The notes under the pieces are model-generated. The model had not been told where the DNA came from and did not search any database. It worked only from the letters and a program-made list of their open reading frames with translations. Both the position numbers and the translations under genes were made by a program. From a phage: a stretch of DNA of 64,000 bases. The stretch is taken from sequence record PV636258.1. One strand, written 5' to 3'. The stretch's first letter is position 1; each line of letters begins with the position of its first letter. Shown in pieces: positions 31,222-40,431 of this stretch.

Positions 31222-31264
31222 CCCCTAAAAGTAAAAATCCCCAACGTTTGTTGGGGATCTTCAG

Positions 31265-31582
31265 TTACTTGCGCAGGGCAACGACGAGTTCAGCTAACTC
31301 TCCGAGGGTAGGATCATCTCCATGTTTACCCACCCACTCGTCACTAATTTCTACATCGTACTCTTCTTCGATTTCCATGACCAGCTCAATCATGTCAAGA
31401 TCGTCACCGCCGAGATCATTCTTAACCCGTAACGGCGCTAAAGCATCGATATTATCATCAATGTTATCAAACTTGTCCTTGTGATCCCCGTTGCGCCAAG
31501 TTTCCATGTTCAGGTTGTCACAAGCGTACTGAGCCAGAACACGCATTACTTCAACATAAGTTGGTTTGTTTGACATAAGCAT
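31265..31582 (-). CDS. acyl-carrier-protein-like protein with Asp in place of the phosphopantetheine-attachment Ser
   Basis: DLGGDDLDMIELVMEIEEEYDVEISDE aligns with ACP helix II ([27 protein letters not shown]); codons GAC GAT CTT GAC verified on the DNA. Confidence 0.7.
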   Translation of the reverse strand: MLMSNKPTYVEVMRVLAQYACDNLNMETWRNGDHKDKFDNIDDNIDALAPLRVKNDLGGDDLDMIELVMEIEEEYDVEISDEWVGKHGDDPTLGELAELVVALRK

Positions 31583-31619
31583 ATCTCAAAATGAAGGCGG
31601 GTTTCCCCGCCAGTTGAAT

Positions 31620-33836
31620 TTAGATTTTGACTTCTTTTTCAGCCAGTTCGGCAGTGACGGTGTATTTCACCCCATCAACTTCCACATCCATAGTGGATTC
31701 TTCCAAATCCAGGTCGGTAAACCAACCATGGCCTGCAACAATCCCATAAACTACCTTGGACAGCGTTTTGTTCAGGGCGCGGACTTCGTTGATAGCTGCT
31801 TTTGCTGCGTCTCCGATCCAACTTTCGATCAGCTTTTTCTGAGTCTCTTCCGGTACGCTGGTGATCATCGGTGATTTAACGAATGCATTGTATTCAGCCA
31901 GGGCATTAGCGATCAGCTGATCAGCGACATTCAGTTTTTTACCGTCCGTCTGTTTTTTGATAACAGACGCGATGCTCGGCAGTGAAGATGCGCCTTTGAT
32001 TTTCACATTCAATTCACGACTCATATAGACATCGGTTGATTCTACAGAAGAAGTCTTCGGTGAAAATCCATAGTCGCGAATGCCGTTTGCTGACAGGAAA
32101 TCAGCCGCTTCTTTGCCATATTTTGAAGCCAGACCAGTAGCGTTGCCTTTGCCAACCAGTTCATCACGGTAGAATTTCAGAACTTTCTGTTTTGCCTTCA
32201 ATGCTTCACGGCGCACATTGTCTGCAAAGAATTCAGCAGCACTGATATTCTTTGTCATGGCGCGGTTAACCATTGGGACACTTTCCAGATTTACAATGAA
32301 GACTTCCGGCCCACCAAACACATGAACACCCATGGCAGTCAAATCCTGTGCCACCTTAGCCCGAACAATCGGAGAATCTGCAGTGATAGGCATTGTTTTC
32401 AGGTTGATGATACCATCCTTGACAATAGTGTAATTACGATAACGCCAGGTTCCCAGCTCTTCAGGAAGTTCATATTTCTTCTGTACAAACTCAGGCACAA
32501 CAACCGTTCCGTGTTGAACTGTCTGCACACTGATGTTAGGACGTTCTGAATTATAGACCAAATTGCTGATCGGGACAATCCCTTTATCATCTGCTGGATT
32601 GAATTCGGGGGTCCAATCTTCGTGCTCGGCCAGTTTGAGCGCCAGGGCTTTACGCTCTTCTTTAGAAGTCGCATTCGCAATCTCTTCGGCCAACTTGTCT
32701 TCGGTGTCATCAACTTTCTGTACAGTACCGCGCCCAATGCTCTTGTAAGAGAATAGCGGATGCTTGGTGACGATAGAGACATCTGCTTCAGCCAGATACG
32801 TCAGAACATCAACAATGGTGGTGGCGTCTTCAGCCGGAACCATATTATAATCGATGCCATCAACTCCTCGCAGAGATTCGTCTACGATAGCCTGAGTCAG
32901 ATCGACTTTGATGTTGGAATAGTCCTGCTTGGTGAAACAGTTGCTGTATTGTTTGATGAAGCGGACGTCACCCGTCTTCTTCAGCGCGGCCCAGACCAAA
33001 TCGGCGTCCATGGTGTACACGCCATAGAATGCCAGCACGTATGCCGCCTGGGTGTCTGCCAGATTATCCAGCTGGTCGATCATGTTGGGGTTTACAACCC
33101 ACAGCTGAGAAACGCTTTCAGGGATGCTGACGTGGCCAATAGGGTGCTCTTCATCAGGATGCACGGCTAAAACAGTCGCCACACCATTTTCAACATAAAT
33201 GGCATGGGTGTAAACCAGGGGAACATCGACCACCACTTTCGGTGAAGAAGTTTTCAGCACGTTTTCCAATTCGGTCTGATATTCATTCTGGCCTTCGGCG
33301 AATACGTGGGTCGCACCAGAACGTTCTGCCATTAGCCCCAGCAGTTCGCGATTACAATACCAACCGTATTCGATGAAGGTAATGTTATCAAACGCTTTGG
33401 GCAGTACTTCAGCGGCATCCAGGATTTCATTAGAACGCCAGCAGTTGTCATATCCGTCGGTCATGAATGCCAGGTTATTAACATAACCAGGTTTATTCAG
33501 GCTAATGGCAGTTTCCGCAGCCAATTTCAGCGGCTCAACAAAACCAGTACAACCAGAAGGCTTCAGGAAACGGTCAATTAGATTATTGATCTCACTGAGA
33601 TCAGTTGCACTGTTAATCTGACGTCCGGCAAATACCGTTCCGAAATCACCGCGAGATGAAAAGTAAAGGATGCTCACAGTATCTTCCGGTTTCACCAGGG
33701 AAGGCAGGTTCTCCTTCAGATGCTTACGGACTTCTGGAAGTGAACGATACATGGAACCGGAGATATCCACAACGATTACATGGTTAGACGGCGCGACGGT
33801 CGCAACCGCATTCTTAAATGTTAATGATTCAATCAT
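31620..33836 (-). CDS. von Willebrand factor A-domain protein (738 aa)
   Basis: N-terminal vWA with MIDAS DISGS (VIVVDISGSM); long C-terminal region unassigned; ATG 33836 preferred to track start 33974 (TTG). Confidence 0.75.
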   Translation of the reverse strand: MIESLTFKNAVATVAPSNHVIVVDISGSMYRSLPEVRKHLKENLPSLVKPEDTVSILYFSSRGDFGTVFAGRQINSATDLSEINNLIDRFLKPSGCTGFVEPLKLAAETAISLNKPGYVNNLAFMTDGYDNCWRSNEILDAAEVLPKAFDNITFIEYGWYCNRELLGLMAERSGATHVFAEGQNEYQTELENVLKTSSPKVVVDVPLVYTHAIYVENGVATVLAVHPDEEHPIGHVSIPESVSQLWVVNPNMIDQLDNLADTQAAYVLAFYGVYTMDADLVWAALKKTGDVRFIKQYSNCFTKQDYSNIKVDLTQAIVDESLRGVDGIDYNMVPAEDATTIVDVLTYLAEADVSIVTKHPLFSYKSIGRGTVQKVDDTEDKLAEEIANATSKEERKALALKLAEHEDWTPEFNPADDKGIVPISNLVYNSERPNISVQTVQHGTVVVPEFVQKKYELPEELGTWRYRNYTIVKDGIINLKTMPITADSPIVRAKVAQDLTAMGVHVFGGPEVFIVNLESVPMVNRAMTKNISAAEFFADNVRREALKAKQKVLKFYRDELVGKGNATGLASKYGKEAADFLSANGIRDYGFSPKTSSVESTDVYMSRELNVKIKGASSLPSIASVIKKQTDGKKLNVADQLIANALAEYNAFVKSPMITSVPEETQKKLIESWIGDAAKAAINEVRALNKTLSKVVYGIVAGHGWFTDLDLEESTMDVEVDGVKYTVTAELAEKEVKI

Positions 33837-34005
33837 CGTTTTGACCTTTTTGGGCTTTGGAGTGTTTGGAGTTCGCGTCGGCGTTCTCCAGCATAGTTTC
33901 AATGAAATCCCGGTTGTTTTCCATTTGGGCGACCAGAACATCACTGGGACGGAATGAATTGTCAAGACAATCAAGTCCGGCGCGTTTTAATTTGTTGTCG
34001 GTCAT
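33829..34005 (-). CDS. small hypothetical protein (58 aa)
   Basis: ATG 34005 downstream of promoter-like TTGGCA...TATAAT; stop 2 nt before vWA ATG. Confidence 0.35.
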   Translation of the reverse strand: MTDNKLKRAGLDCLDNSFRPSDVLVAQMENNRDFIETMLENADANSKHSKAQKGQNDD

Positions 34006-34155
34006 CAGGCTCTCGTGAGTTATATTTCCCAACTATTTCAACATGGGACTATTATATTACGACAGGCGGTATTGATGCCAATTAATATAATAAAAATGCC
34101 CGATTGAATATAACCGGGCATTATATTATTGACAGGTTGAAATATTATTCAGAGC

Positions 34156-35028
34156 TTATTTAAAGGAGTCTACAATGGATTTGAAAATATAATCTTTGGA
34201 GCGTTGTTGTACCGGGAGTTCTCCATACGGAACCATGCAAGGGTGTTGCTTGGTCTGAGGGTCTTTGACTGGGCCATACACCCATCCCTCAGCCTCCTTC
34301 TCCGCCATCCAGCTCTCATGCGATTCGCTGGGCTTACGATCACCAGTGAGATGGAAGATAACACCTTTGCAAGCGCTCTCACGCTGCCAGGCCGGAGATT
34401 GTTCCCAAGGCAGTTGAGAGTCGTCACCAACAGACTTGCAGTATGCGCGGTTGGCTTCATGACAAATCTTGGCGATGCGCAGAACCAATGGCGAATAAGT
34501 GAGATTGAGTTTGGAGTTGGCGCGCAGGAAATCACTAACAGCCTTACGAGATTTGGCGTTGTGAGAGTCAACAACAAGTTCCATGTCATCCGGCCCACAA
34601 ACGAAAGACGCCAAGAAGCGCTCGCCATTTTCCGCTCTGAACATCACGTCCTGAATCATCACATTGAAGCCGAGGTGATAGGCCGGGCAGAGGGCGCTAC
34701 GTTCAACAGCGTATTGATCGATCCGGATCTCTGCCGTTTCCGTGGCTTTGGCCAACAGATCTTGTTCAACAAGCGCCCGGTACGCCTCCAGCTGCCACAG
34801 CTGGTCGAAGGTGTTATTGTAGGAAATCTCTTTGCCCAGGGCTTCATCGAAGTTGGCCGGGTCTATGGATGTGCTGGGCTTGGTGCCGTGAACGACGAAG
34901 CCGTTATCCATCTTGAAATGACAAGTGATAGCCCGGTGACCGCCGACTTCGCGGTCTTCGTAAATCACCTCAGCGATATGTGACTTCAGGACTTCAGGAG
35001 TGAGTTTGATGCCAGTACGAGTTGTCAT
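34156..35028 (-). CDS. RyR-domain protein (290 aa)
   Basis: C-terminal HESWMAEKEAEGWVYGPVKDPQTKQHPCMVPYGELP matches ryanodine-receptor (RyR) domain signature; AGGAT SD. Confidence 0.65.
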   Translation of the reverse strand: MTTRTGIKLTPEVLKSHIAEVIYEDREVGGHRAITCHFKMDNGFVVHGTKPSTSIDPANFDEALGKEISYNNTFDQLWQLEAYRALVEQDLLAKATETAEIRIDQYAVERSALCPAYHLGFNVMIQDVMFRAENGERFLASFVCGPDDMELVVDSHNAKSRKAVSDFLRANSKLNLTYSPLVLRIAKICHEANRAYCKSVGDDSQLPWEQSPAWQRESACKGVIFHLTGDRKPSESHESWMAEKEAEGWVYGPVKDPQTKQHPCMVPYGELPVQQRSKDYIFKSIVDSFK

Positions 35029-35880: not shown

Positions 35881-37899
35881 TTAGAAAATGACTTTTACAG
35901 TACGGTTAAACGCGCCGGACACTTTGACGAACACGTGGTTGCGTTGCGTCGTTGAGAATCCCAGACCGGACAGTTGGTTTTCATTCGGCTGGACTTTCAT
36001 TTTACTACCCAACATTTCAAAAACCTTACGATGTTTATCCAGTTCTGGCTTCAGATATTCGTTGTAGAAACCACGAGTACCTTCAGGATTAGCACAGCCT
36101 TCAAGAATGAAGAACACGTGCTTGTTACCAGTTTGCTCCCCATCCCAATGGTTTGGTGAATTCAGGACCAGCTGTACTTTCTGGAAGGTCGCAGTCTTGA
36201 TACCCCAAACTTCTTTAGACTTATCAACATTAGCCAGTTCGGACTTAATGCCAACAACTTGTTTGTCTTTAACAGTCAGGATGACTGCAGTGATACGCCC
36301 CTGATCTTTCAGGCCAGGATGGCTGAAACGATGCGTTGCGCCTTTGTATTCTACTTCGACTTCAAACCCTTCGTCGATTTTTTCACGTTGATTGTAGTTG
36401 TGGATTTCGAAACGGTATTCACCATCGCGCAGCTTGCTTTCATCTGTAAAGATGATATTTTCCACCGGAGCGCGGTTTGGATCAATACCATCCATACCGT
36501 TCATATCGATATCCAGATGGGCACCTGTCATAGAGCGGCGATCGCGGAAGTAAACGTGCTCCATGTTGTTGAACATATGCAGATCGAGGTCGTCGTTATT
36601 GTGCCACGCCAAGGAAACGCGCAGATACCCGTCAACTTTACCACCAGCAGCCTTTACACGTTCTTTAATGGAATCGGTCACTTCACCGTTGTAAGACCAG
36701 GAGAAACCGTTGTTCCACTTGAACAGGTTAGGCGCATCTGGGTTCGCCGGAGCAACCAGGGACATCAGGTTGCTAGTGTGAGAATTCTCTACAAGCACTT
36801 CCATTGAATGCGCTTTTGGCAGAACATTGCTCAGGAAATCATCAACGCTGATCTCTTCAACTTTTTCCAGGGACTTGGTCGGAGTTTTCACTTCGGCGGC
36901 CAGCTGAGCAAACGGATCCATCGCTTTCTGAGCAGCCAGGTCGGCAAACAGAACGTTGTTGATGGTCAGATCATCGTAAACCGCATAACGACGCGCCAGT
37001 GAGTCTTCCAAACCCAGAGCAATAACTTCTTTCTGAGCGTTTTCGATCATGGATTTTGAAACCAGCGCTGTCGGACGTTTGTAGTTCGCCGGAGCAACTT
37101 TGGATTCAAACGATTTAACAGCCTTTTCCAGTTCCACGCCTTCGCTGATATCTGTCAGCAGAGTGCCGATAACTGTGTTACGGATGCCGTGTGGAACATG
37201 ATTGTTTGAACGGTATCCAGTATGCCATGCCCAAAGAGAACGGGCTGATTCGGGGACTTGTTCATATGCCTTTTTGGTTTCAACAAATCCCTTCACTGCT
37301 GCTTTGTGTTCTGCGCCGCGATACAGAGAATTCTGGTCAATCAGTTCCAGAACGATTTCAGCTGATTCCAGAGTAATTTCACGCAGACCGCGTTCAAACA
37401 ATTCAATAGCCTGGCGGATTTCACCTTTTTTCGAAGCGATTGCGTCCGGACGCAGAACATAGCTACCAAGTAATTGGGTATGGAAATGATTGTAAGTACG
37501 GATTTTGCCATCTTCACCAGATTCGTGATTGTGAGACAGGCCGACTTTGGCAGAATCGTTAAAATAAACATCGACGATTGCGTGTTGTTTGACATAAGCG
37601 GAAAGAGCCGCAGCCACCACGTCATATTCATTACCCAGATCAATGTTGTCCCAGATGGAAATCACGTTCAGCTCTGAATCGATGGTGACAACACCGCCGA
37701 TGTTACGGATGAATTGTTTACAGCAGGTGCAATCGTGTTCAGTACGTTCGCGGTACAGCGGGTTAGTACCAGCAGGGAAAGATGCCAGATACAGATCCCA
37801 AAGAGCATCTTTATCGATATTGGTCATGAACAGACCAGTTGCGGACATCGCCAGCACGTTGTTATTAACTGCCGTTGCGAAGGGTTTGAATTCTGCCAT
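35881..37899 (-). CDS. large hypothetical protein (672 aa)
   Basis: ATG 37899 with AGGAAG SD; no family-B polymerase, P-loop or other recognisable motif. Confidence 0.7.
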   Translation of the reverse strand: MAEFKPFATAVNNNVLAMSATGLFMTNIDKDALWDLYLASFPAGTNPLYRERTEHDCTCCKQFIRNIGGVVTIDSELNVISIWDNIDLGNEYDVVAAALSAYVKQHAIVDVYFNDSAKVGLSHNHESGEDGKIRTYNHFHTQLLGSYVLRPDAIASKKGEIRQAIELFERGLREITLESAEIVLELIDQNSLYRGAEHKAAVKGFVETKKAYEQVPESARSLWAWHTGYRSNNHVPHGIRNTVIGTLLTDISEGVELEKAVKSFESKVAPANYKRPTALVSKSMIENAQKEVIALGLEDSLARRYAVYDDLTINNVLFADLAAQKAMDPFAQLAAEVKTPTKSLEKVEEISVDDFLSNVLPKAHSMEVLVENSHTSNLMSLVAPANPDAPNLFKWNNGFSWSYNGEVTDSIKERVKAAGGKVDGYLRVSLAWHNNDDLDLHMFNNMEHVYFRDRRSMTGAHLDIDMNGMDGIDPNRAPVENIIFTDESKLRDGEYRFEIHNYNQREKIDEGFEVEVEYKGATHRFSHPGLKDQGRITAVILTVKDKQVVGIKSELANVDKSKEVWGIKTATFQKVQLVLNSPNHWDGEQTGNKHVFFILEGCANPEGTRGFYNEYLKPELDKHRKVFEMLGSKMKVQPNENQLSGLGFSTTQRNHVFVKVSGAFNRTVKVIF

Positions 37900-38018: not shown

Positions 38019-38243
38019 TCAGACGATCTTACCGCCGTCACAAGGCCGAGTATCACCGGAGTTGTATGCCAGCATCCCCTGCTTCATCAAACGTCTCGGC
38101 CCAGAAACTGATTTCTGTTTCCTCAGCGTGTTGCAAAACCGAGTATTGCCTGGGTAAGGAGTGTACACGAGACGTCCTTCCATACGGGCTTTCAGAAGAA
38201 ACTCATCAGTCGCTTTACACAGTTTGAACAATTTCCAGCTCAT
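38019..38243 (-). CDS. hypothetical protein (74 aa)
   Basis: ATG 38243, ATGA overlap with HNH gene stop. Confidence 0.4.
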   Translation of the reverse strand: MSWKLFKLCKATDEFLLKARMEGRLVYTPYPGNTRFCNTLRKQKSVSGPRRLMKQGMLAYNSGDTRPCDGGKIV

Positions 38244-39169
38244 TTTTCACCCTTGTATCTTTTTAACCATTTTACGCATTTTAATGGTTCCCAGCCTTTA
38301 TTGAAACGTTCGATTATCCCACTGGTGGCATTAAACGCCTTCAGATCTTTTGTTCCATACACGAACAAGAGGGCTTCTGAACGTTTCATCGTATTCAGGG
38401 CTTCAAGGAATTGATCAGCTTTCTCCCAATATACGTCATTGTCGGGGTTCCATTTACCCTTCTCCCAAGGCATCTTAGCCAACATGCCTTTCTGAGCGTT
38501 TTCTTTCTGTTTGGCGCGTTGCTCTGGTGTGAATGAGTTGGTTAAGTCCTTCCCATAATTGGGATTGAGTTCCCCAAGTTTAGCTTTCCTGGCACGTTCA
38601 GAAAATTGTTCTAAATCCATGTTGGCGCGGCGTTTCTCTAAAACCCGCCTTTTATATTCAGGATCAGAAGCCATCCTTTCATGGATTTTCATCAATCCTT
38701 TGGTAATTTTCTTGACTTGCTCTGGAGTTCTCTTATACCCATATTGGGGATTATTCTTTCCTCTTCTCCCATACATTGGGTTGTTTGCCCCGACGCATTT
38801 AGAGACACCCTTTGTGAGTTTGGATATTCTTTGTCCAAATTCTTTCCTTAACTTTTCGTAAAGGTGAGAATTAAATTTTATGCCCGTTGGTGTATACCTA
38901 CCCCCACGGCTCATCAAAAGAACAGCATATACCATATCAGAATTCGGGAAAGCCAAGGCCAAACACACATGGGCAAGATAATGTTGCCTGCCAGTAAGTC
39001 TTGCCAAATTGATCTTGTCTTTGGAATATTCAGGGAACATGCTCTTGGGAAGGATGTGGTGTAATTCGGTGTAGTCACCATCAGGATATTTGAAAGATTG
39101 AATCATCCTCAAATACTTCTTGATAAAATGCGGTTTACCGCCTTTAGAAATCAATAATTCGTAAAACAT
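38240..39169 (-). CDS. HNH homing endonuclease with NUMOD-like repeats (free-standing)
   Basis: ELHHILPK...HYLAH His-Me finger motif; repeated NPMYG/NPQYG/NPNYG motifs; GGAG SD. Confidence 0.7.
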   Translation of the reverse strand: MFYELLISKGGKPHFIKKYLRMIQSFKYPDGDYTELHHILPKSMFPEYSKDKINLARLTGRQHYLAHVCLALAFPNSDMVYAVLLMSRGGRYTPTGIKFNSHLYEKLRKEFGQRISKLTKGVSKCVGANNPMYGRRGKNNPQYGYKRTPEQVKKITKGLMKIHERMASDPEYKRRVLEKRRANMDLEQFSERARKAKLGELNPNYGKDLTNSFTPEQRAKQKENAQKGMLAKMPWEKGKWNPDNDVYWEKADQFLEALNTMKRSEALLFVYGTKDLKAFNATSGIIERFNKGWEPLKCVKWLKRYKGEK

Positions 39170-39228
39170 AACAGGAACTCCAAATGAAAGTTCCTGTTAT
39201 AATATACTTTCTTAACTCACAAAGTAAG

Positions 39229-40431
39229 TTACTTTTTAAATAAATTTAGTAGGTTTTTAGAACCAGATGTCGTCGCTTTAGGTTGTCCTTCCCCATCGTA
39301 TCCAACCTTCCCGCGCGGTTTTTTACCTTGCTGTAAAGCCTCTACACAACGGGTGTATTTCTGAAGTTCACAAAACATATTTTCTCCTGCCATTATATTT
39401 AAATGGTGATCCCAAGGCTCTTCCGCAGACCAAAATTCTTCCCTGTTATACCCAAGAGGACCATAAACTGCGTCCTGATTATCCCGTAGCCAGAATATGC
39501 ATTCTTCATGAGTCATGCCGTCCTTATCCAGGAACATCAGGTCAATACCCGCACGGCAACCTGGACCAGCGATAGTGAAATGATTCTCACTGAATGGATA
39601 CTCAGGGATGTATGTGAAGTCCACCCAGATCTGATATGCCAGGAATGGCCCAAGCCCCTCAATGTCGTCATACATCGCCTGGTAAACAGAGTCGGGACGG
39701 CTAAATTCCCTGAGGCGATCAAAGTAATGAGGGTGTTTGTTGACGAATGCCTTCAAAGAGCGGATGACTCGCATTGGCATGTACGGCTCCCAACCCTCAA
39801 TCGTGTACTCCCCAGGATTCTCTTCAACCAGCTTCTTGGCGACCTTGTAATCCAATTCATCCACGACACCCTGGCCAACACGGTGTACCTTAACCATCAT
39901 GCCACCGAAGCGCTGCTCCTTGTGGTTGACAACCAGCTCAGGAAAAGCCAGGCATTGCTTCAGACCGCCCGTGTTGAAGGCATTGGTGAATACCTTACCA
40001 CCGTCGGCCTCGAACTTCTGAAGACGGGCGCGGGTCTCGTCCAGGTTGATTTTAGCAAAGTCTGAAATCGTCATAGCGCCCTCGAGCGCCACCTTGATCG
40101 GATCCCAGAGATTGAACATGCGGAACAGAACACAGTTGAACATTTTGTCGGCCATGCTCAGAGCGTCGTTCTTGACGATGTTGTTGATCAGGTTGAGGGA
40201 CTGCCTGTCGTGCTCTCTCCGGACGTTACAGAACTTGACCTGCCGTAGTATAGGATTATTCGTCCAAGGAGCAGGAAGACGCTGGACGTCCTTCTTGACG
40301 TGGATCTGGTAACGATCGTGCATCCATTCGTAAGACCACTTTACAATCTGCTGGTCCAGGACGGGTTTGGCAGATTTAATTTTAGCTTCCCGAACACCGC
40401 AATAAGGAATGTCACACGGTTTATCTTTCAT
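39229..40431 (-). CDS. hypothetical protein (400 aa)
   Basis: ATG 40431 with GAGGAT SD; own terminator upstream; no motif recognised. Confidence 0.65.
   Translation of the reverse strand: MKDKPCDIPYCGVREAKIKSAKPVLDQQIVKWSYEWMHDRYQIHVKKDVQRLPAPWTNNPILRQVKFCNVRREHDRQSLNLINNIVKNDALSMADKMFNCVLFRMFNLWDPIKVALEGAMTISDFAKINLDETRARLQKFEADGGKVFTNAFNTGGLKQCLAFPELVVNHKEQRFGGMMVKVHRVGQGVVDELDYKVAKKLVEENPGEYTIEGWEPYMPMRVIRSLKAFVNKHPHYFDRLREFSRPDSVYQAMYDDIEGLGPFLAYQIWVDFTYIPEYPFSENHFTIAGPGCRAGIDLMFLDKDGMTHEECIFWLRDNQDAVYGPLGYNREEFWSAEEPWDHHLNIMAGENMFCELQKYTRCVEALQQGKKPRGKVGYDGEGQPKATTSGSKNLLNLFKK

Follow-up and report, generated by a model that had tools for sequence, protein, structure and literature searches.

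A von Willebrand factor A protein of large tailed phages with an intact metal site, no conserved partner gene, and a C-terminal region without solved structural relatives

Introduction

The MIDAS (metal ion-dependent adhesion site) of von Willebrand factor A (vWA) domains binds an Asp or Glu residue of the ligand (PMC6509490), and proteins carrying such a site often have a MoxR-type ATPase as partner (PMC7824862). The MoxR-associated vWA proteins, such as ViaA, NorD, and CoxE, and the chelatase subunits CobT, ChlD, and BchD are defined by an AAA+ partner that is encoded nearby or is fused to them. In ArnB, vWA2, and 4FX5, the vWA domain is inserted in a beta-sandwich and is followed by a helical bundle; the same tripartite arrangement forms the Sec23/24 core and is predicted for YfbK of E. 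coli (PMC6509490, PMC12852372). Here we analyze a gene unit in a stretch of phage DNA of 64,000 nucleotides (nt) (sequence record PV636258.1; the whole stretch is called the window below). The unit encodes an acidic protein of 58 amino acids (aa), a 738-aa protein with a vWA domain, and a 103-aa protein that resembles acyl carrier protein (ACP). An earlier annotation, called the sequence-only reading below, had described it as an early operon. In the explanation that we favor, to which we give a probability of roughly 0.45, the 738-aa protein works by itself as a MIDAS adaptor or effector and is nearly confined to large tailed phages; it joins a binding module of ArnB/Sec23 type to a C-terminal module with a new fold, and the ACP-like protein serves as a decoy specific to its lineage.

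Results

The only part of the 738-aa protein that Pfam recognizes is residues 20 to 182, as VWA (PF00092; 30.9 bits against a cutoff of 23.8). This part has the Rossmann-like alpha/beta fold of the vWA superfamily, contains the motif VVDISGSMY, and holds a complete MIDAS (D24-x-S-x-S28, T97, and D127), in agreement with the sequence-only reading, which had noticed the DISGS motif. In an alignment of 54 homologs, D24, S26, S28, T97, and D127 are invariant, together with about 30 further positions spread over the C-terminal two thirds of the protein. The MIDAS and many of the C-terminal residues are also unchanged in the homologs of Bacillus phage AR9 and of Rhizobium phages, which are only 22 to 26% identical, and all 69 full-length homologs taken from IMG/VR have the DxSxS motif. 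In these sequences, the metal site of the vWA family is strictly maintained. No transmembrane-like segment was found, and the protein is therefore probably soluble. In the virion proteome of Vi01-like phages, the vWA protein and the ACP-like protein were each detected by a single peptide retrieval, among the nonstructural products, which argues that neither is a structural component.

The family is large. A word-seeded search returned at least 236 homologs, and among the 120 listed the identity ranged from 34 to 99% and the coverage of the query was 96 to 100%, with one exception. With tblastn, the gene was found in 505 phage records belonging to at least four phage families; these include Straboviridae with about 48% identity (Slopekvirus, Pseudotevenvirus, Karamvirus-type Cronobacter and Enterobacter phages, and Shewanella phage Thanatos), Bacillus phage AR9 (26%), and the Rhizobium phages of the Kleczkowskaviridae (23%). 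The hosts range from Bacillus to marine bacteria, and the family comprises about 1,300 clusters at 50% identity. When bacterial and archaeal genomes were scanned, one per species for 185,579 species, five loci with a homolog were obtained. Full-length chromosomal homologs with 35 to 37% identity and an intact DISGS motif are present in Achromobacter anxifer (locus L019, 5236..7416) and Novimethylophilus kurashikiensis (locus L018, 5140..7287). These copies sit beside ordinary cellular genes (MYG1 exonuclease and HlyD/OEP efflux) and open reading frames (ORFs) without a Pfam or PHROG match, and after the Achromobacter copy come two small ORFs that match AAA_16 weakly. A prophage context was rejected for both, as their neighbors have no PHROG matches. 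Another locus, on a 178-kb contig assigned to Flagellimonas marina (L017, NZ_JBHSCL010000010.1), has genes that are 85 to 91% identical to those of enterobacterial T4-like phages (Pseudotevenvirus and Slopekvirus). This contig is almost certainly a misbinned phage contaminant in a marine Flavobacteriia assembly.

The AlphaFold2 model of the 738-aa protein, made with the 54-sequence alignment, has a mean predicted local distance difference test score (pLDDT) of 88.2 and a predicted template modeling score (pTM) of 0.74. It shows an N-terminal strand (residues 4 to 6), the vWA domain, five strands (200 to 248), and five helices (250 to 318), and 293 of its residues align with 4fx5 and 266 with ArnB. 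When the family profile was compared with the sequences in the PDB, ArnB (E 3.4e-4) and ITIH1 (E 4.1e-4) were the sole matches. According to the model, the vWA domain, beta-sandwich, and helical bundle together make up a module of the ArnB/YfbK/Sec23-24 type, which spans residues 1 to about 320. Because these elements match the tripartite architecture, about 125 residues of the C-terminal region of roughly 550 aa that the sequence-only reading had left unassigned (residues 196 to about 320) are part of a known module; about 420 aa are left that match no known family, CobT included.

The resemblance to the described proteins has clear limits. ArnB and ArnE (vWA2) of Sulfolobus acidocaldarius and 4FX5 of Catenulispora are 365 to 430 aa long and end after the helical bundle, whereas the phage protein continues for about 420 residues, and the sequence identity to this group is only 12 to 17%. 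The partner of ArnB is the FHA/zinc-finger protein ArnA, and the system is under kinase/phosphatase control; in the phage operon and among its neighbors no FHA or kinase gene was found. A DUF3268 zinc-finger protein is encoded three genes upstream, but it co-occurs with the vWA gene in only 2 of 33 lineages. The trunk, beta-barrel, and helical domains of the Sec23/Sec24 core of COPII resemble the N-terminal module, but the phage protein has no zinc finger and no gelsolin domain and occurs in an unrelated cellular context. Moreover, the trunks of Sec23/24 are without a working MIDAS, whereas that of the phage protein is perfect. A Ku-like architecture (vWA domain, barrel, and arm) was not supported, and the vWA domain is not followed by a Ku-type beta-barrel core of the kind seen in the vWA and beta-barrel rings of Ku70/80 and Integrator INTS13/14.

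Residues 196 to 738 modeled alone (25 sequences) gave a pLDDT of 88.1 and a pTM of 0.75. A Foldseek search with this model against 350,542 PDB chains gave no match below E 0.2. For the C-terminal region, Pfam searches with 13 family members and a sequence-profile search of the PDB were empty, and NCBIfam and PADLOC gave no match either, so that neither CobT nor another family known to these resources could be assigned. PADLOC models also matched none of five proteins tested. In the model, the C-terminal module is mixed alpha/beta, with a beta-rich part (about 411 to 520), long helices (533 to 561 and 663 to 701), and two beta-hairpins. Its overall composition is acidic, but residues 521 to 620 make up one basic segment (isoelectric point [pI] 9.7). 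A profile of residues 196 to 738 had 1,319 matches among 1.84 billion representative proteins, 852 of them below 1e-30. In nearly all of the 150 matches listed, the C-terminal region begins at about residue 200 to 230 of a 700- to 800-aa protein, and from this fixed start we conclude that it is always fused to a vWA domain. About a dozen shorter proteins among these 150 begin inside the C-terminal region. A few short members without a vWA domain look like truncated gene calls.

The sequence-only reading had seen no MoxR/CobS-like ATPase in the window, and this result extends to the whole genome of the 98%-identical phage dinky, in which none is annotated. In that near-identical genome, a Pfam scan of ten unassigned mid-size ORFs, two of which proved to be thymidine-hypermodification enzymes, detected no AAA+ domain, and nothing but helicases, PhoH, one kinase, and a pair of small ORFs came up in a Walker-A scan. 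The 738-aa protein itself has no match to the CobT, CobT_C, or ViaA families in Pfam or NCBIfam. We then surveyed the neighbors within 4 kb of the vWA gene at 75 IMG/VR loci, which represent 33 lineages at 55% identity. No neighbor family was common to more than 4 of the 33 lineages. P-loop neighbors occurred in three lineages and none was conserved; 30 lineages thus have no AAA+ neighbor, unlike the MoxR-associated and chelatase vWA proteins. An ACP-like neighbor was present in two. At six loci from other phage families, the ACP-like gene, the small ORF, a 672-aa protein encoded upstream of the unit, and the 5-hydroxymethyldeoxyuridine (5-hmdU) DNA kinase HMUDK were not found within 5 to 7 kb of the vWA gene. 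With no conserved neighbor and no ATPase partner found, the vWA gene can be regarded as a stand-alone gene. The 672-aa protein was rejected as a partner because its distribution across phages is quite different. Likewise, thymidine hypermodification, suggested as a context by the neighboring 5-hmdU DNA kinase, was rejected, as Straboviridae, AR9, and the Rhizobium phages have no HMUDK nearby.

The unit runs from the ATG of the small ORF to the stop of the ACP-like gene (Table 1), as the sequence-only reading had it, and every gene in this part of the window is on the minus strand. The surrounding 4.5 kb matches Salmonella phage Chennai (MN953776.1; Kuttervirus, Ackermannviridae) at 100% identity and dozens of ViI-like phages at 97 to 99%. 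The small ORF ends in AACGATGATTGA, which contains the start ATG of the 738-aa gene, and its stop overlaps that ATG by 8 nt (ATGATTGA). Such an overlap is typical of translational coupling, so that the proposed translational linkage is supported, as far as gene arrangement can tell. A homologous small ORF with an identical overlap is present in three further genera, Agtrevirus, Limestonevirus, and Taipeivirus, and the order small ORF, vWA gene, ACP-like gene is fixed in the four Ackermannviridae genera, with a gap of about 40 nt before the ACP-like gene. The upstream genes of about 110 aa in T4-like phages were rejected as counterparts of the small ORF because they show no similarity. All three genes are real and conserved: with at least 236 homologs of the vWA protein and 38 clusters of the ACP-like protein in a collection of 5.8 billion proteins, they are not chance ORFs.

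Table 1. Positions of the features of the three-gene unit in the window
Feature	Position	Strand	Remarks
Intrinsic-terminator-like hairpin and U-run, ending the transcript of the upstream 290-aa gene	34095..34122	-	-18.4 kcal/mol, z -4.9
Putative sigma70-like promoter, TTGGCA-16 nt-TAATAT (34081..34054), with an overlapping perfect TATAAT 2 nt on	34051..34081	-	Consensus match
58-aa acidic ORF	33829..34005	-	phrog_11447; ATG at 34005
738-aa vWA protein	31620..33836	-	chennai_164; phrog_2426
vWA domain, residues 1-195 (MIDAS D24, S26, S28, T97, D127)	33252..33836	-
MIDAS motif DISGS, residues 24-28	33753..33767	-
Predicted beta-sandwich (about 196-249) and helical bundle (about 250-320), completing the ArnB/4FX5/Sec23-24-type tripartite module	32877..33251	-
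C-terminal module, residues about 321-738, mixed alpha/beta in the model, many invariant polar residues	31623..32876	-
GC-rich hairpin between vWA stop and ACP-like start	31596..31611	-	-13.8 kcal/mol, z -2.95; weak terminator or stabilizer
103-aa ACP-like protein	31265..31576	-	chennai_163; phrog_4154; alternative ATG at 31582
GAT codon of Asp59, which takes the place of the phosphopantetheine-attachment serine (Ser36 of E. coli AcpP)	31400..31402	-	Alignments
Strong intrinsic terminator, 14-bp stem (31263..31232) and U-run, closing the unit	31226..31263	-	-19.8 kcal/mol, z -5.1

The ACP-like protein matches Pfam PP-binding (PF00550) with 30.7 bits against a cutoff of 20.8. With the 12 NCBIfam ACP models, all scores are 30 to 60 bits below the cutoffs (the best is 40.5 against 71). 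Its DLGGDDLD aligns with DLGADSLD of Bacillus ACP, which places Asp59 at the phosphopantetheine serine. An Asp or Glu occupies this site in all 12 aligned phage sequences, and the divergent copy of phage phiMAM1 (DLWFDELD) is also without the serine. Compared to AcpP, which is likewise small and acidic, the helix II region aligns well (DLGGDDLDMIELVMEIEEEYDVEISDE), but Ser36 is replaced in every member, the N-terminal part is about 25 residues longer, and a GxxGDDPT stretch is inserted before the last helix. The pI is 4.2. The genome annotation lists neither a phosphopantetheinyl transferase nor an acyl-chain enzyme, and a literature search on serine-less phage ACPs gave nothing specific. Because every homolog has Asp or Glu instead of the attachment serine, the protein cannot be a carrier; it appears to be a conserved, very acidic protein of ACP fold, and its designation as "acyl carrier protein" in GenBank misleads as to function. 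With tblastn, the gene was found in 271 phage records, all from Ackermannviridae. The sequence-only reading had expected the vWA and ACP-like genes to be co-conserved, and this is half true: they are syntenic within the Ackermannviridae and adjacent in only the two lineages mentioned above. For these reasons, the ACP-like protein is not a general or ancestral ligand of the vWA protein. In phiMAM1, the two genes are separated by three genes.

A terminator and a promoter-like element precede the small ORF, as had been described before. The promoter is the weakest part of that description: it matches the consensus at 9 of 12 positions, and the region holds 12 such matches where 5.8 are expected. 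The strong terminator after the ACP-like gene and the weaker hairpin between the vWA and ACP-like genes had escaped the sequence-only reading. With a promoter and a terminator upstream and a strong terminator downstream, the three genes can be considered one bracketed unit. A T4-type late promoter (TATAAATA) was not found near it, and a literature search did not bring up a Kuttervirus transcriptome. From the type of promoter, early expression in Kuttervirus is plausible. It is not a property of the whole vWA family, because the AR9 homolog g068 is a late gene: its expression is 0.96, 105.6, and 431.5 fragments per kilobase per million (FPKM) at 5, 20, and 40 min, respectively (PMC5312081, Table S4), a profile that resembles those of late genes such as the portal and virion genes, and its late transcription begins at a primary start site of its own. 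Of the name "early operon", the word "early" is thus no more than plausible. AR9 also has a separate pair of an AAA ATPase and a peptidase-vWA protein (g028/g029), which is continuously expressed and distinct from g068.

Several other genes in this part of the window, all on the minus strand, deserve mention. The 175-aa product of 30336..30863 matches PHROG 832, "RNA polymerase ADP-ribosylase" (E 1.5e-16), and has R, S-x-S, and E-x-E-like motifs (TLYRG, CLSFSE, and MEKEW) and no Pfam match; its counterpart in dinky is annotated as "pyrimidine dimer DNA glycosylase", which looks like a misannotation. The 290-aa protein encoded at 34156..35028 consists of an N4 gp49/Sf6 gp66 domain (residues 9 to 84) and a C-terminal RyR domain (235 to 279) and is conserved in phiMAM1. 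The 672-aa protein (35881..37899; phrog_1735) has no Pfam or NCBIfam match. The 561 phage records that contain it cover widely differing groups, namely Ackermannviridae, Caulobacter phiCbK-like, Bacillus BCP78-like, Vibrio, and Stenotrophomonas phages and cyanophage MaMV, and in some of them its label is "putative DNA-directed RNA polymerase" or "SAP domain protein". The 5-hmdU DNA kinase (39229..40431; PF18723, E 3e-80) is only 76% identical to that of dinky, whereas the flanking genes are 98 to 100% identical. A NUMOD3 homing endonuclease gene (38240..39169) and an adjacent 74-aa ORF are present here and are both absent from dinky. The pattern over 38019..40431 looks like a homing-endonuclease-associated mosaic.

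Discussion

How could a vWA protein with a perfect metal site work without an ATPase? In the explanation that we favor, promoter, 58-aa ORF, 738-aa gene, 103-aa gene, and terminator would form a self-contained Kuttervirus transcription unit. The 738-aa protein would be soluble, would not be part of the virion, and would act alone as a MIDAS-dependent adaptor or effector, with no AAA+ ATPase involved. We expect its intact MIDAS to grip an acidic side chain on a partner protein, and the phage-specific module of about 420 residues would supply a second function, either binding of or catalysis on the target held by the MIDAS. The hypothesis of the sequence-only reading that the C-terminal region may be a novel effector would be preserved in this form. 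The ACP-like decoy would keep the acidic recognition helix of ACP, with an Asp or Glu replacing the prosthetic-group serine, and because of this replacement it would act only via protein-protein contacts, possibly as a mimic. We regard it as a probable accessory of the Ackermannviridae and not as an obligatory partner of the vWA protein.

Several points weigh against this explanation. A literature search did not find a characterized member of the vWA family, and no activity, ligand, or phenotype is known. The fold searches covered the PDB, so that "no relative" means no solved relative. The rare chromosomal copies in Achromobacter and Novimethylophilus indicate that the term phage specific is not absolute. 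The late expression of the AR9 homolog fits a role in assembly as well as a role as effector, and the tight synteny of the vWA and ACP-like genes across the Ackermannviridae could mean that they are real partners there.

A bolder form of the same idea, which we consider possible and on the whole doubtful, is that residues 321 to 738 or so constitute a new fold with an activity of its own. Its active or binding site would be made up of about 12 invariant polar residues (the invariant ones include D290, R323, N434, S436, R467, D474, R525, K551, D602, K614, and S617), and the MIDAS clamp would aim it at a target that is present across hosts; in the Ackermannviridae it would be paired with the serine-less ACP. 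If this were true, there should be a target common to hosts as unlike as Bacillus, Rhizobium, enterobacteria, and marine bacteria, and the family would provide one of the most widespread uncharacterized nonstructural functions of large myoviruses. The serine-less ACP of the Ackermannviridae would then plug the MIDAS or hijack the interaction network of the host ACP.

It is unlikely, although the gene arrangement invites the idea, that the three proteins form a complex in which the MIDAS ligand is encoded by the operon itself. In the Ackermannviridae, this ligand would be either Asp59, located at the helix II tip of the ACP-like protein, or the acidic tail (..NDD) in which the 58-aa protein ends. 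The recognition helix of the ACP-like protein might dock on the basic segment (residues 521 to 620) of the vWA protein. Such a complex would agree with the gene order, overlap, and short gap fixed in four genera, with the bracketing of the genes by one promoter and one terminator, with the pairing of a very acidic protein (pI 4.2) and one conserved basic segment (pI 9.7), and with the preference of MIDAS sites for Asp or Glu (PMC6509490). However, of the at least 33 lineages of the vWA family only 2 have an ACP-like neighbor, tblastn finds the ACP-like gene only in Ackermannviridae, and three genes part the two in phiMAM1. Moreover, the small ORF overlaps the vWA start codon at its end, and this overlap constrains its terminal NDD.

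By analogy with the vWA cochaperones of virus tail assembly, the 738-aa protein could be a morphogenesis factor, that is, a nonstructural or low-copy assembly chaperone or scaffold whose MIDAS holds a structural protein; MoxR-vWA chaperones are known in virus assembly (PMC7824862). The late profile of AR9 g068 points this way, as do the restriction of the family to large contractile-tailed phages, the label "minor tail protein" in two GenBank records, and the one peptide retrieved from a virion preparation. The position of the Kuttervirus gene argues against it: the gene lies among replication and nucleotide-metabolism genes, has a sigma70-like promoter, and has no T4-type late promoter nearby, and its homologs in other lineages have small genes of early type or genes of DNA metabolism as neighbors. 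In addition, the homolog is not among the listed virion proteins of AR9, and the AAA+ partner of such chaperones was not found. We consider this role quite improbable.

Enterobacterial hosts encode RavA-ViaA, and a phage vWA subunit of the MoxR/RavA-ViaA, CobS-CobT, or ChlI-ChlD type could in principle borrow an AAA+ ATPase of the host, as the frequent pairing of MIDAS vWA proteins with MoxR-type ATPases would lead one to expect. This is very unlikely in view of the missing CobT- or ViaA-type Pfam match, the 30 of 33 lineages without an adjacent AAA+ gene and the lack of conservation in the others, the separate g028/g029 pair of AR9, and a host range from Bacillus to marine bacteria. Finally, that the ACP-like gene is an auxiliary metabolic gene for a true acyl or peptidyl carrier, unrelated to the vWA protein, is suggested by the above-threshold PP-binding match and by the PHROG and GenBank labels but is effectively refuted by the Asp or Glu in all homologs examined, the scores 30 to 60 bits under every curated NCBIfam ACP cutoff, and the lack of an annotated phosphopantetheinyl transferase or acyl-chain enzyme in the genome.

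The sequences as such are not new, since the vWA family has long been visible in databases (phrog_2426, VOG3102, and RB43 ORF119c). What is new is the dissection of the vWA protein into domains, with 420 residues that have no solved structural relative, the finding that no partner is conserved, and the loss of the serine in the ACP-like protein. With its confident model and a region of this size unlike any solved structure, the vWA protein offers structural and interaction studies a well-defined target. The value of the analysis is a sharply defined question that can be tested, with the mechanism still to come. The "acyl carrier protein" label on about 270 phage genomes is functionally wrong, and among the phages that carry the vWA gene are candidates for therapy directed at Salmonella, Klebsiella, and E. 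coli O157. For the biology of these phages, the vWA family departs from the usual rule that a vWA protein goes with an AAA+ ATPase, in spite of a perfectly conserved metal site, and the serine-less ACP of the Ackermannviridae points to a possible mimic of a central hub protein of the host.

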